64,000 bases of DNA from a phage. Below, piece by piece: positions 565 through 51,437 of the stretch; position 1 is the first letter of the stretch, and the number at the start of each line of letters is the position of its first letter. Below the pieces are notes generated by a model that did not search any database, was not told the origin of the DNA, and was given only the letters and a program-made list of their open reading frames with translations. Both the position numbers and the translations under genes were made by a program. Location of the stretch: the NCBI GenBank assembly GCA_036252695.1, contig GCA_036252695.1_4122.1; one strand, written 5' to 3'.

Positions 565-596
565 AGTACTGCCATCGTGTGCAGTACTTTTTAATT
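565..596 (+). terminator. rho-independent terminator
   Basis: Inverted repeat AGTACTGC/GCAGTACT followed by TTTTAATT. Confidence 0.5.
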
Positions 597-606
597 GGAG
601 ATTACT

Positions 607-1221
607 ATGACTACATCGGAAAAGTACTGGTGGATTTTGGGTCATCCTAAATTCATAAACAAAGATATGGTTCCAGCTAGGATTGATATTGAACCTCATG
701 ATGTGTGTCCAATGACAAATCGAATTGAAGATTTCAAAGCATTGAATACAAAGACTCAATTTTGGGTAGAATTTCTTTCACCAATGTATATTGAGCAAGA
801 CGACGAATGGGTACAAGCACATGATTATCAATTGGATTGTGGTGGTGATACGTATGAAGAGGCCATTGATGAATTATACAAAAATGTTCTGAACACATAT
901 GGGGATTATACCCAACAGGAAGCAGATGATAAATTTCATAAAATACATTCATTCAATGCATCACAATCAATATATAATCCCGCTAAAACAGTTTGGGAGG
1001 AACGACACAGTTGGAGTTCATGTGTAATCGATGAAGAAACCAAAGAAAAAATCATCGATGACATAAAAAATTTAAAAAATACAATCCAAGCCTTGCGTGC
1101 ATTCATAAAGTCTTGTACAATAGGAGAACAGCAAGAGGCAAAGATACATTTGGAGAGTGAAGAATGTAAACTTTGGGTTCTAGAAAAATCACTTGAAAAG
1201 GGTATAGACTTAGACTTATGA
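607..1221 (+). CDS. hypothetical protein
   Basis: ORF track 595..1221; ATG at 607 follows GGAG with good spacing; no recognisable domain. Confidence 0.5.
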   Translation: MTTSEKYWWILGHPKFINKDMVPARIDIEPHDVCPMTNRIEDFKALNTKTQFWVEFLSPMYIEQDDEWVQAHDYQLDCGGDTYEEAIDELYKNVLNTYGDYTQQEADDKFHKIHSFNASQSIYNPAKTVWEERHSWSSCVIDEETKEKIIDDIKNLKNTIQALRAFIKSCTIGEQQEAKIHLESEECKLWVLEKSLEKGIDLDL

Positions 1222-1586
1222 ATAGTAAATTGGAGAAACTTGTTGAAGAATTACGCCGGATGCCACCTATTGAGCAAGTAGGGAACTACAAGCGGTATCG
1301 TGTGATTGCTCGTGCACTGGATAAAAAAGGTCGAGTACTGGCAACTCGCACAAATTCTTATACACAGACTCACCCAGTACAGAAGGGTTTCGCCATTCGT
1401 GCTGGGCGACCGCAAGGTGAGTTTCTTCATGCTGAAATTTCATGTTTACTGGCTGCTCGTGCTGATGTTCATACTTTACTGATTGCACGGATAAGTAAAG
1501 ATGGAATTCCTGTACCTGCCAAACCATGTGAAATTTGCACATTAGCAATTATGGAATACGGGGTTAAGGAAATTATCCACACATGA
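1218..1586 (+). CDS. small CDA-fold nucleotide deaminase (cytidine/dCMP deaminase-like zinc-binding motifs)
   Basis: HAE (HAEISCLL) and PCxxC (PCEICTLAI) motifs about 32 residues apart; ATGA start-stop overlap with upstream gene. Confidence 0.55.
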   Translation: MNSKLEKLVEELRRMPPIEQVGNYKRYRVIARALDKKGRVLATRTNSYTQTHPVQKGFAIRAGRPQGEFLHAEISCLLAARADVHTLLIARISKDGIPVPAKPCEICTLAIMEYGVKEIIHT

Positions 1587-1807
1587 AGAAAATCGAGCGT
1601 TATACAAACCATACTGTTGTAGTTGAAAATGATATATTTTATTATTATATTTTCAGACCTATACATTGTTGCCAAATAACAACATTCAATAGTGGAAGGT
1701 TTTATGACAAGAACTTTCACATTACTGAGTTAGCAAAATATTCCAGTACTGAACACTTTAGTAATCTAGTATATGTGTACTGTATACCAAACCCAAATAA
1801 TAAGTAG
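1583..1807 (+). CDS. hypothetical protein (doubtful)
   Basis: 74-aa ORF with low-complexity composition in an AT-rich stretch; may be non-coding leader. Confidence 0.2.
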   Translation: MKKIERYTNHTVVVENDIFYYYIFRPIHCCQITTFNSGRFYDKNFHITELAKYSSTEHFSNLVYVYCIPNPNNK

Positions 1808-1816
1808 GAGATTAAA

Positions 1817-2176
1817 ATGGCTAAAACTATTTCTTTAAAAAATGAAAATGTAGGACAACGCAAAGATGGTTTCTTTGGATTCTCATGGACAACACTATTC
1901 TTTGGACCATTCCCTGCATTGTTTCGTGGTGACTTTATTACGTTCATCGGTGCATTTGTAATTTACTTCATCCTCAACGCAGTGTCATTTTGGATTGTGG
2001 GTACAATTGCAATGGTCGTGTGGGCATTTCTTTACAATAAGTACTACACAGTGAATCTCATTAAGAATGGGTATAAATTCAATGGCACACATGAAGAAAA
2101 TGCTGAAGCTGCAATGGCTTTACAAATTGATTTGAATAAAAACAACACAGTTGATAAAAACAAAGATCCAGAATAA
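1817..2176 (+). CDS. small integral membrane protein
   Basis: Strong RBS AGGAG; long hydrophobic stretches consistent with 2-3 TM helices. Confidence 0.5.
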   Translation: MAKTISLKNENVGQRKDGFFGFSWTTLFFGPFPALFRGDFITFIGAFVIYFILNAVSFWIVGTIAMVVWAFLYNKYYTVNLIKNGYKFNGTHEENAEAAMALQIDLNKNNTVDKNKDPE

Positions 2177-2395
2177 ATGGAAAAATATGACATAATTTAC
2201 GATTATTATGGTAAGGCTTATATGAAGTGTGGGCGTTATGTTGAACTCTCTAATAGAGAATCAATAGATCCCCACACTCTTATAACAATTCATAATTCGT
2301 ACTATAAAAAAGTTACAATAGCTAATTTCGCTACATACGTGAATAATCCATTATTTCCTTACATTATTCAGTACTACTGTCGAGTTATAAAATAA
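2177..2395 (+). CDS. hypothetical protein
   Basis: 72-aa ORF immediately after upstream stop. Confidence 0.4.
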   Translation: MEKYDIIYDYYGKAYMKCGRYVELSNRESIDPHTLITIHNSYYKKVTIANFATYVNNPLFPYIIQYYCRVIK

Positions 2396-2405
2396 GGTAA
2401 AAAAA

Positions 2406-2816
2406 ATGTTAGCCGATGATTTTATGTCTCTAAGTACCAAGATATTTGATATATTAGGAGATGAAATAGATTTCCACCTAAATGATACAACTATACCGTT
2501 CGAAGATGGTGGTTATTTTTTTGCATTTGGTTATAAGTACAATGTTGATTTCTCAATTCCGATTCCTGATGGAAGTGATTATACATCATCAACATATTTT
2601 GAATTTCAGTTCAACGGACACAAAGAGCGTTTACTAACATATAGACGTAAAGGTAATTTCAGTAGACCAGAGATTATATTAATGGATATTGAAAAACGAA
2701 TAGAAATTGCAAAGAATAATCCATTCTTCAGTTCTTATGCGTTAAACCAACTTATTGAACTATTTGATGGCTATCCAGACAGAATACGAGGGTCGTTACG
2801 TATCAATGCAGAATGA
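2406..2816 (+). CDS. hypothetical protein
   Basis: 136-aa ORF with AAGG RBS. Confidence 0.5.
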   Translation: MLADDFMSLSTKIFDILGDEIDFHLNDTTIPFEDGGYFFAFGYKYNVDFSIPIPDGSDYTSSTYFEFQFNGHKERLLTYRRKGNFSRPEIILMDIEKRIEIAKNNPFFSSYALNQLIELFDGYPDRIRGSLRINAE

Positions 2817-2991
2817 AATCTTTAAAAAAGAATACGATGGTGAAAGTCTCTATGATATTCAGAGAGATGTGCATGAAGCCTTCGATTCAAGATTTAACCC
2901 ATTAGCTGAACAAATCCCACAAGATGAGTTTGGTTTTCAAGAAGGGACGTTCACAGTAACTATTACATGGAGTCCAGATGAGACTAGCTAA
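2755..2991 (+). CDS. hypothetical protein (start uncertain, possibly ATG at 2806)
   Basis: ORF overlaps end of upstream gene in another frame; followed by a terminator. Confidence 0.3.
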   Translation: MNYLMAIQTEYEGRYVSMQNEIFKKEYDGESLYDIQRDVHEAFDSRFNPLAEQIPQDEFGFQEGTFTVTITWSPDETS

Positions 2992-3093
2992 ACTTGTCAT
3001 AGGTTGCAGTGCACTTGCTGCATATATGCTTTTTTCCGCACCAACCAATGTATTACTGCTAATTTGGGCAGTTGTTATATTAGCAGTACTTTA

Positions 3094-3117
3094 AAAGCAC
3101 CCTTGTGGTGCTTTTTC
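3094..3117 (+). terminator. rho-independent terminator
   Basis: AGCACC / GGTGCT hairpin followed by TTTTT. Confidence 0.5.
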
Positions 3118-3254
3118 TATTTGTGCAAATAAAAAGCAATGTGACTTTTCCTTGATATAGGTCAAGAGAAATAACCTGTTCTGACGCTATAATGTTGTCT
3201 GGTGATATTAAATATCTTCACCCCCAGATGATTTCAAAATACAAGGAATGTACA

Positions 3255-5068: not shown

Positions 5069-5401
5069 ATGGATTTAAAGCCAATTGTGGTTAACAAATA
5101 CAAAGAACCGTATGATGTGTATATTGGACGTGGGTCTAAATGGGGAAACCCATTTACCCATATTAAAGATAAACAAACTAAAGCCGAATTCATTGTTAGT
5201 ACAAGAGAAGAATCAATTGAAAAATTCAGAGAATACATTATTGAACGTATTTCTTGTGGAGAAGTTAAGATTGATGAATTACTTGAACTCGCAGGGAAAC
5301 GCCTTGGTTGTTTCTGTAAACCAAAATCATGTCACGGCGATGTTCTTGTCGAAATAGTGAGTGCAATATTAGATGAATTACCAGACGATAATGAAGGATG
5401 A
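5069..5401 (+). CDS. DUF4326-family protein
   Basis: Motifs YIGRGSKWGNPF and CFCKPKSCHGDVL characteristic of DUF4326; sits between nrdD and nrdG. Confidence 0.6.
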   Translation: MDLKPIVVNKYKEPYDVYIGRGSKWGNPFTHIKDKQTKAEFIVSTREESIEKFREYIIERISCGEVKIDELLELAGKRLGCFCKPKSCHGDVLVEIVSAILDELPDDNEG

Positions 5402-5843: not shown

Positions 5844-5847
5844 CATA

Positions 5848-5869
5848 AGCACCCATTGGGTGCTTTTTT
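5848..5869 (+). terminator. rho-independent terminator
   Basis: AGCACCC / GGGTGCT hairpin plus T6. Confidence 0.55.
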
Positions 5870-49914: not shown

Positions 49915-50508
49915 ATGAAAAAGAATGAATTAGATGAAGCAATTAAAGGTTTATCTAATGTATGTTTTAGTGGCGGGGCAGCAGGTGCTGACCGCCTTTT
50001 TTCTATCTATGCAAAAAATAATGGATTTGAAGTTATTAATTTTTCATTCAAAGGTCATGAGCATAGTGTAGATGAAAGTACTATATTAGAAATACCATCC
50101 AATATTCTATCTGATATTTCTATATTAAATCAACTAAACATTGCATGTTACTCGTTGCAGCGAAAAGTACCAAAACCTGGTTCTTATGTTTACAACTTAC
50201 TTGCAAGGAATAGTTATCAGATACTTAATACAGAAAGAATATATTGTATTGCAAATATCACATCACCAACTAAGGTAAGTGGTGGTACTGCATGGGCAGT
50301 ACAGATGTATATGGATTCAGTTGAAAATCCTGAAATTTATTGTTATGATATGAATTCACGTTCAGTATTTTATTTCGATACAGTACTGAAAGAGTTCACA
50401 CAAACATTCGTCGTTCCAGCACCACATGGTAACTGGACTGGTATTGGTTCACGCAATGCCACCGAAAAACATATGGAACATTTTATTACATTTTTCAAGG
50501 AAGAATAA
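49915..50508 (+). CDS. DprA/Smf-like (SLOG-type Rossmann) protein, tentative
   Basis: GGAAGAD near N-terminus, LLARNSYQI and SGGTAWAVQMY resemble the DprA G.ARGID, FP.RNR and SGS..TA motifs; directly upstream of td with ATGA overlap. Confidence 0.4.
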   Translation: MKKNELDEAIKGLSNVCFSGGAAGADRLFSIYAKNNGFEVINFSFKGHEHSVDESTILEIPSNILSDISILNQLNIACYSLQRKVPKPGSYVYNLLARNSYQILNTERIYCIANITSPTKVSGGTAWAVQMYMDSVENPEIYCYDMNSRSVFYFDTVLKEFTQTFVVPAPHGNWTGIGSRNATEKHMEHFITFFKEE

Positions 50509-51437
50509 TGAAACAACTACAAGAACTATATCAAAAAATTCTAGATGAAGGCGTAGAAAGCGTTGACCGTACTGGTGTTGGAACAATCAAACTTATCGGT
50601 CAACAAATGCGTTTTGACCTTAAAGATGGTTTCCCAGCAGTGACGACAAAACGTCTAGCTTGGAAAGCAATGACTTCAGAATTACTATGGTTTATTGAAG
50701 GTTCCCATGATGAGCGTCGCCTTTGTGAAATTTTGCATGGAACTCGTGATACAGAAAAGAAAACTATTTGGACAGATAATTACCTAAATCAAGGCGTTGC
50801 TCTTGGTTATACTGATGGTGAGTTAGGTCCAGTGTATGGTAAGCAATGGCGTGAATGGGAAGATTATAAATTTAGTTCCAGTACTGAAGAAATTCAAGAA
50901 TTAAAAGATAAAGGATACAAAGTTATCGATTATACTGGTTCACATGGTGTTGTTATGAAACGTACAACTGACCAATTACAAGAACTAATCAAAGGTATAA
51001 AGTCCGACCCATATGGTCGTCGCCACATTCTAAGTGCATGGAACGTTGGTGAGCTTGATGATATGACGTTGCCACCTTGTCATAGCTTTGTGCAATTTTG
51101 TGTAGTACAAGGGAAACTAAGCTGCATTCTACATCAACGCTCCGCTGATCTATTTTTAGGAGTTCCATTTAATATCAGTAGTTACTCACTACTAACTCAT
51201 ATGATTGCACAAATTACTGGTTTAGATGTTGGTGAATTTATTTGGAATGGTGGTGATTGTCACATTTATAAAAACCACGTTGAACAAGTAAAAGAACAAC
51301 TACAGCGAAAACCTCGTGAATTACCTGAATTGTGGCTTGATCCTACAATTACTAATATTGAAGATTTCACAATGGATTCTTTCAAATTAGTGAATTACAA
51401 CCCAATGCCAACAATTAAAGCACCGATGGCTGTATAA
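50508..51437 (+). CDS. td: thymidylate synthase (ThyA-type)
   Basis: Canonical motifs DRTGVGT, GPVYGKQWR, LPPCH, QRSADLFLGVPFNISSYSLL; uninterrupted ORF. Confidence 0.9.
   Translation: MKQLQELYQKILDEGVESVDRTGVGTIKLIGQQMRFDLKDGFPAVTTKRLAWKAMTSELLWFIEGSHDERRLCEILHGTRDTEKKTIWTDNYLNQGVALGYTDGELGPVYGKQWREWEDYKFSSSTEEIQELKDKGYKVIDYTGSHGVVMKRTTDQLQELIKGIKSDPYGRRHILSAWNVGELDDMTLPPCHSFVQFCVVQGKLSCILHQRSADLFLGVPFNISSYSLLTHMIAQITGLDVGEFIWNGGDCHIYKNHVEQVKEQLQRKPRELPELWLDPTITNIEDFTMDSFKLVNYNPMPTIKAPMAV

Follow-up and report, generated by a model that had tools for sequence, protein, structure and literature searches.

On which substrate does a CDA-fold deaminase of only 122 amino acids act, and why do large phages carry a gene for it? 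The question is raised by an open reading frame near the start of a 64,000-nt stretch of phage DNA (the window; contig GCA_036252695.1_4122.1 of NCBI GenBank assembly GCA_036252695.1). The original prediction saw there a minimal deaminase, which could be a stripped-down dCMP or cytidine deaminase feeding thymidylate synthesis, or else a nucleic-acid-editing enzyme. The phage has a G+C content of 32-37%. Over the first 6 kb, the window shares 100% identity with Escherichia phages vB_EcoM_G17 (G17) and Sharanji and 98.6% with phage 121Q, all three of which are Asteriusvirus jumbo myoviruses of ~350-370 kb. The open reading frame is annotated as a CDS in each of these records, as 121Q gp490 ('dCMP deaminase'), G17_00433 and Sharanji gp468 (both 'hypothetical'). 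The GenBank annotation of the gene is thus already known, and the fold and chemistry of its product are ordinary. The features discussed below are located in Table 1.

Table 1. Location in the window of the mini-deaminase gene, its motif codons and the surrounding features.
Feature	Position (nt)	Strand	Basis or remark
Terminator-like hairpin ending the preceding transcription unit	565-588	+	Hairpin scan; terminator also annotated in G17
204-aa ORF (121Q gp489, PHROG 16370), function unassigned	607-1221	+	PHROG 16370 at E 8e-102
Mini CDA-fold deaminase CDS, 122 aa, ATG start, stop included	1218-1586	+	ORF; PF00383; AlphaFold model; CDS in three phage records
Codons of residues 46-55, N-S-Y-T-Q-T-H-P-V-Q (family motif N-x-x-K-[TS]-H-P-x-Q)	1353-1382	+	Family alignment, model
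Codons of His71-Ala72-Glu73 (first zinc ligand and catalytic Glu, start of helix 2)	1428-1436	+	Sequence read
Codons of Pro103-Cys104-Glu-Ile-Cys107 (second and third zinc ligands, start of helix 3)	1524-1538	+	Sequence read
Small ORFs downstream in the deaminase unit	1583-1807, 1817-2176, 2177-2395, 2406-2816	+	
Terminator-like hairpin ending the deaminase unit	3093-3115	+	Hairpin scan; agrees with G17 annotation
nrdD ORF, start ambiguous	3192/3255-5060	+	Start at 3192 (622 aa) possible; 601-aa product from 3255 annotated in G17, 121Q and Sharanji
DUF4326 gene, between nrdD and nrdG	5069-5401	+	PF14216, E 6e-24; 29-nt overlap with nrdG start
Terminator-like hairpin	5847-5865		Hairpin scan; agrees with G17 annotation
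Thymidylate synthase ThyA	50508-51437	+	Translation contains '...DLFLGVPFNISSYSLL...'; annotated thyA in Sharanji

The HAE and PCxxC motifs of the predicted 122-aa protein were borne out by the sequence and by profile comparison. The product carries the [HC]-A-E and P-C-x-x-C motifs of the superfamily, which are kept in its relatives, and it matches Pfam PF00383 (dCMP_cyt_deam_1) with 29.4 bits against a gathering cut-off of 25 (E 7.8e-7) over profile positions 20-99 of 102, as well as PHROG 174 'dCMP deaminase' at E 6.6e-13. The motifs are thus no chance occurrence. Among the NCBIfam equivalog models, none for dCMP deaminases was matched, ComEB (TIGR02571) and the TadA equivalog (NF008113) gave no match at E up to 1, and TIGR01354 for tetrameric cytidine deaminase scored 13.8 bits against a cut-off of 113.65. 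In the profile-to-PDB comparison, the closest entries were the dCMP deaminases of S-TIM5 (4p9c, 1.4e-6), S. mutans (2hvv, 1.6e-6) and T4 (1vq2, 1.3e-5); TadA-like proteins reached only ~3e-3, and no cytidine deaminase appeared among the 28 sequence matches at E up to 1. Foldseek instead ranked tetrameric cytidine deaminases (4wif, 4f3w, 3ijf), human DCTD and blasticidin-S deaminase highest, with TM-scores of ~0.5, and fold searches gave no separation of dCMP deaminase, TadA and cytidine deaminase.

Judged by sequence searches, the protein belongs to a large and mainly viral family. A word-indexed search returned 50 relatives, and an exhaustive profile search of 1.84 billion representatives returned 4706 proteins at E<1e-3, of which the best 150 are all 96-166 aa long; at E<1e-10, 1156 clusters remained. 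Using tblastn, we located the gene in 196 phage records, the carriers including RaK2-like jumbo phages, phiKZ (PHIKZ260) and its relatives, T4-like cyanophages, Aeromonas phages and Salicola phage SCTP-2. A scan of 185,579 prokaryotic genomes (GTDB), which was pattern-based and of limited sensitivity, yielded two loci, and one of these is on a phage contig within a MAG. Public labels for the family are inconsistent and include dCMP deaminase, TadA and hypothetical protein. In the literature, neither phiKZ gp260 nor 121Q gp490 nor any of their relatives was found to have been studied functionally, and we found no description of a virus-dominated clade of mini-deaminases with its own motif, of its shortened or hairpin C-terminus, or of its coexistence with canonical Cd or Dcd.

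An alignment of 160 diverse family members was used for conservation analysis. The first zinc motif is close to invariant (H71 in 159, A72 in 154 and E73 in all 160 members), as is the second (P103 in 159, C104 and C107 in all 160). Loss of the zinc ligands in relatives, which had been named as grounds for rejecting the deaminase assignment, was therefore not seen, and the claim of a CDA-fold deaminase with intact ligands is upheld. Since the ligands and the catalytic Glu are retained in relatives, the protein is very probably an active enzyme, and a degenerate or inactive domain was rejected in view of the invariant catalytic residues. The family motif is also well conserved (N46 in 158, K50 in 131 or 82%, H52 and P53 in 145 each and Q55 in 141 members), with Q replacing the usual K at position 50 in the phage of the window, and R91 in strand 3 is conserved across the same alignment. 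From the fold and the invariant residues, we firmly infer zinc-deaminase chemistry: His71, Cys104 and Cys107 would hold a zinc-bound water, Glu73 would shuttle the proton, and the reaction would be the deamination of an amino-pyrimidine or amino-purine.

The AlphaFold model built with the family alignment (pLDDT 92.2) has the elements a1, b1, b2, an inserted helix, a2, b3, a3 and b4. Its helices span residues 3-14, 53-61, 72-80 (with HAE) and 105-114 (with PCxxC), and its strands residues 28-34, 40-45, 86-92 and 118-121, which gives an alpha/beta/alpha fold with the zinc motifs at the N-termini of helices 2 and 3. The extra helix, 53-61, sits between strand 2 and helix 2, carries T-H-P-x-Q and is opened by the N-x-x-K-[TS]-H-P-x-Q motif, while a loop of 8-10 residues separates strand 86-92 from the PCxxC helix. 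The chain stops at Thr122, directly after strand 4. The description of the protein as minimal is well founded in this sense, as the model has four strands only and is without the segment of helix 4 and strand 5.

The same stopping point recurs in the family: 66 of the 160 relatives end within two residues of it, and most of the others have 8-17 additional C-terminal residues, often of the type 'YTTDEGxxxL'. In the model of a 143-aa relative (P0049; pLDDT 87.7), strands 125-130 and 133-138 are joined by a two-residue turn into a hairpin, and helix 4 is absent. In these models, the family chain would either end at strand 4 or add a short hairpin strand 5. T4 Cd, TadA, RibD and guanine deaminase are members of the helix-4 division. 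A division of the fold into C-terminal-hairpin and helix-4 layouts has reportedly been published by Iyer et al. in 2011. Because the longer member has a hairpin and no helix 4, the mini family is predicted to have either this hairpin layout at the C-terminus or a truncated form of it. We also considered a split gene with its C-terminus encoded in the next ORF (1583-1807); this was rejected, as that ORF is found only in the closest phages, and it is further countered by the many family members that end at the same point.

The original prediction had described the protein as much smaller than T4 dCMP deaminase (193 aa), which holds for T4 Cd itself. Across the fold, however, a length of 122 aa is not exceptional: tetrameric cytidine deaminases and blasticidin-S deaminase in the PDB have chains of ~120-136 residues, and the dCMP deaminase of cyanophage S-TIM5 has 138 aa. 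According to the model, what would be unusual in the protein is the stop of the chain at strand 4.

The dCMP deaminases (T4 Cd, ComEB, human DCTD, S-TIM5 dCD and PBCV-1 bi-DCD; IPR016473) share with the mini-deaminase the HAE and PCxxC motifs at a spacing of ~30 residues, a long insertion after strand 2 and before the HAE helix, and an occurrence in large phages alongside nucleotide-metabolism genes. However, all solved members have helix 4 followed by a parallel strand 5, and canonical dCMP deaminases run 25-40 residues beyond strand 4, whereas the mini-deaminase ends there. It also lacks the second-zinc-site cysteines of T4 Cd, and differs in its strand 3 to PCxxC loop and in its own N-x-x-K-T-H-P-x-Q motif, while its profile similarity to the group remains at only ~1e-6. 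The residues by which T4 Cd contacts the deoxycytidine moiety are V24, N40, A105, E106 and P131 (PMC12697855). They align with V29, N46, A72, E73 and P103 of the mini-deaminase, all of which are conserved in the family; such contacts are common to other nucleoside-type CDA enzymes and are not specific to dCMP deaminases. Since the sequence is nearest to dCMP deaminases but neither their architecture nor a match to their equivalog models was found, we treat the mini family as a distinct clade of the superfamily, closest in sequence to the dCMP deaminases.

A further comparison is offered by mSCD-B5 and its relatives, which are likewise phage-encoded single-domain PF00383 proteins and show that 'dCMP deaminase' labels can hide dCTP and ssDNA activity (bioRxiv 10.1101/2024.12.05.627091). 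mSCD-B5 is 154 aa long and has the prototypical mononucleotide deaminase fold, matching 7fh4 in Foldseek at 3e-15, whereas the mini-deaminase reaches 1.5e-3. Genes of the mSCD-B5 type adjoin homologs of dCMP-methylating thymidylate synthase; the mini-deaminase gene does not, and the ThyA encoded in the window is of the dUMP type. This last assignment follows the published Asn/Asp criterion for dUMP-specific ThyA (bioRxiv 10.1101/2024.12.05.627091): the residue equivalent to E. coli ThyA N177 is Asn ('...GVPFNISSY...'), which predicts ordinary conversion of dUMP to dTMP and, as a consequence, phage DNA in which T and C are unmodified.

The Asteriusvirus lineage also encodes a canonical deaminase. 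Sharanji gp491 (159 aa; OR545507.1, 302356-302835, minus strand) lies ~11 kb upstream of the point corresponding to window position 1, scores 78 bits with PF00383 and 71 bits with ComEB, and aligns with T4 Cd (1vq2) over its full length at E 5.9e-35; the alignment covers the second-zinc cysteines as well as the helix-strand segment at the C-terminus. Outside the genus, it is most closely related to the cd genes of T4-like phages, with 41-45% identity. The paper describing Sharanji names gp491 a tRNA adenosine deaminase; by sequence comparison, this 'tRNA-specific adenosine deaminase' label looks like a misannotation. The inconsistent annotation conceals that in these phages the mini-deaminase and the true Cd ortholog are encoded by different genes. 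Two CMP/dCMP deaminases are reported in the CBB paper, and gp495 is given as dCMP deaminase in the RaK2 paper, while the RaK2 homolog of the mini-deaminase is recorded as hypothetical. Going by its gene number relative to nrdD, RaK2 gp495 appears to be the canonical deaminase and not the mini gene. A phiKZ-like carrier of the mini gene encodes a Dcd-type dCTP deaminase as well, and in two marine viral contigs a second deaminase ORF of 144-160 aa is found within 8 kb of the mini gene, with weaker matches (E 2e-4 and 1e-5). As the same phage lineage has a Cd ortholog, RaK2 and CBB also have two deaminases, and the phiKZ-like carrier has Dcd, the mini-deaminase would be an addition to a complete dTMP route and not a reduced substitute for Cd. 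The suggestion of a stripped-down dCMP deaminase feeding thymidylate synthesis is accordingly weakened, both by the full-length Cd ortholog and by the failure to match ComEB or any other equivalog.

The reading we prefer, with a rough probability of 0.45, is that the substrate would be a free cytosine (deoxy)ribonucleotide and that the protein would serve as an additional, allosterically unregulated deaminase. A free cytosine nucleotide is favoured because of the sequence affinity to dCMP deaminases and the conserved sugar- and base-contact residues, and also because of the conserved basic residues and the nucleotide-metabolism genes nearby. K50 and R91, near-invariant in the family, together with K102 would fit a phosphate-bearing substrate. 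Candidates would be dCMP, dCDP, dCTP or their ribo forms, and the activity may shift the flow of pyrimidines to dU and onward to dT nucleotides, for a genome of 32-37% G+C. The enzyme would probably work as a homo-oligomer, and allosteric control would be lacking because the segment after strand 4 of the regulated enzymes is missing. If this is true, four strands suffice for a working CDA fold, with no need of an allosteric module, and two parallel cytosine-deaminating routes operate in many large phages, a point of relevance to how their dNTP ratios are set.

Genomic context does not decide for or against this reading. In a survey of 67 IMG/VR loci, in which genes were called, the deaminases assigned to 24 lineages and the neighbours clustered, PhoH, glutaredoxin, PolB, UvsX, DnaB and ClpP recurred across lineages, all of which are generic large-myovirus genes. 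The neighbours PhoH, glutaredoxin, PolB, UvsX and DnaB, the nrdD-nrdG unit that comes next in the window, and the combination of a dUMP-type ThyA with low G+C in the phage are in favour of a nucleotide role. Against it, a second dC-to-dU route looks redundant beside Cd or Dcd, no thymidylate synthase linkage was found in the 67 viral loci, no equivalog model is matched, the post-strand-4 segment is missing, and fold searches are flat.

The alternative that survives best, though we consider it rather unlikely, is a polynucleotide deaminase that edits tRNA, other RNA or ssDNA (C-to-U or A-to-I), which could serve to take over the host, to tune tRNA decoding or to damage competing DNA. The mini-deaminase has a pI of 9.71 and the family is uniformly basic, with a median pI of 9.6 and 97.5% of members above 8, which suits a nucleic-acid binder at least as well as an enzyme of nucleotide metabolism. 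Several members are labelled TadA by JGI pipelines, one T4-like context adjoins RNA ligases and PNK, and dUMP supply is already covered by Cd or Dcd; in addition, enzymes of the dCMP-deaminase type from phages accept both ssDNA and nucleotides as substrates (bioRxiv 10.1101/2024.12.05.627091). On the other hand, the profile of the family is nearer to dCMP deaminases than to TadA, and the mini-deaminase has no additional nucleic-acid-binding or targeting domain. A free ssDNA deaminase would also introduce mutations into the genome of the phage itself, and Sharanji is described as not nucleus-forming. No tRNA genes were found within the window. TadA has C-terminal helices after strand 5, whereas the mini-deaminase is without helix 4, strand 5 and such helices, and gave no TadA equivalog match. 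Taken further, the family could represent natural stand-alone polynucleotide deaminases of ~100-120 aa that act on ssDNA, RNA or tRNA for editing in large phages, with the 204-aa partner of RaK2-like phages as a possible targeting or regulatory subunit; this wider proposal we regard as unlikely. Interest in the family would rise sharply if it edits nucleic acids: it would then provide a phage editing enzyme of record small size and clear biotechnological value, and the smallest known scaffolds for editing deaminases, suited to compact base-editor domains.

A nucleoside-level cytidine or deoxycytidine deaminase, as a cut-down analogue of the tetrameric enzymes for pyrimidine salvage, is quite improbable. 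It draws on the Foldseek ranking, in which 4wif, 4f3w, 3ijf and blasticidin-S deaminase come top, on the similar size of 120-136 aa, and on the longer relatives, whose strand-4/strand-5 hairpin without helix 4 resembles that of the tetrameric group. Tetrameric cytidine deaminases have Cys-Ala-Glu (CAE) as their first motif and PCGxCRQ as their second, whereas the mini-deaminase has HAE, with His as first ligand, and PCEICT. In the phage of the window it is, moreover, without strand 5 altogether, unlike the homotetrameric enzymes. The TIGR01354 score, the TM-scores of only ~0.5 and the absence of cytidine deaminases from the profile-to-PDB matches also count against this assignment, and the conserved basic residues suggest that the substrate bears a phosphate group.

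We regard as very improbable that the mini gene encodes the main dCMP deaminase of the phage, a shortened equivalent of T4 Cd that would supply dUMP to ThyA: the annotation in 121Q and several other records, the PHROG 174 match and the presence of ThyA in the window would agree with it, but the true Cd ortholog of the same lineage is elsewhere, and the published RaK2 gp495 appears not to be the mini gene. Least probable of all is a counter-defence or niche role on another small molecule, such as a cytosine-containing immune signal, a modified base or an antibiotic-like nucleoside, for which the redundancy with Cd or Dcd, the blasticidin-S deaminase among the structural neighbours and the position amid small, fast-evolving unassigned genes in phiKZ, a cyanophage and an Aeromonas phage could be cited, but which has no conserved link to known anti-defence genes and sits poorly with the conserved N46, the counterpart of the sugar-contacting Asn of T4 Cd, which points to an ordinary nucleoside moiety.

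Within RaK2-like phages, the free-nucleotide deaminase that we prefer may cooperate with the translationally coupled 204-aa protein encoded upstream. The start of the mini-deaminase gene overlaps the stop of this ORF (ATGA, 1218-1221), and the partner gene lies immediately 5' of, and overlaps, the called deaminase start in 13 of 13 RaK2-like loci, by 4 nt in most, even though the partner proteins are only 34-54% identical across these loci and all other neighbours vary. His, Cys and Asp residues are invariant within the first 100 aa of the partner, and its C-terminal half is coiled-coil-like; beyond coiled-coil noise, neither Pfam nor the PDB gave a match, and no fusions with the deaminase were found among its homologs. 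Its N-terminal domain stands alone in three other phages, where it does not adjoin a deaminase, and the pairing is therefore specific to the RaK2-like lineage. Moderate evidence thus supports the partner and the deaminase as a lineage-specific functional pair.

The two genes belong to a unit of small genes at ~590-3115 that is delimited by terminator-like hairpins, of which nine were found against 2.8 expected, and that is followed by the nrdD-DUF4326-nrdG unit. The stop of the mini-deaminase gene overlaps the start of the next ORF (1583-1586). Among the loci compared, the four small ORFs that follow have homologs only in the closest Asteriusvirus loci, and this region 3' of the mini-deaminase turns over fast, unlike the conserved partner-deaminase pair; the product of 1817-2176 is labelled 'HrgC' in 121Q. 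The hairpin at the end of the unit lies just upstream of both candidate nrdD starts. The DUF4326 product gives a weak match to a PHROG labelled 'ribonucleotide reductase NrdA-like' and may be an accessory factor of the anaerobic reductase.

In other phages, namely cyanophage ACG-2014f, phiKZ and Aeromonas phage 4L372D, the mini gene lies among small hypothetical genes, a setting that offers no clue to function. In Synechococcus phage ACG-2014f (NC_026927.1, 28256-40540), it is also within ~6 kb of genes for a 2OG-Fe(II) oxygenase and two DNA methyltransferases, a possible sign that it is connected with modified cytosine in this lineage. Finally, the coordinate offset between the window and Sharanji is not constant: in the ThyA region it differs by 2576 bp from that in the first 6 kb, and the window therefore has an indel relative to Sharanji between ~6 kb and 50 kb.
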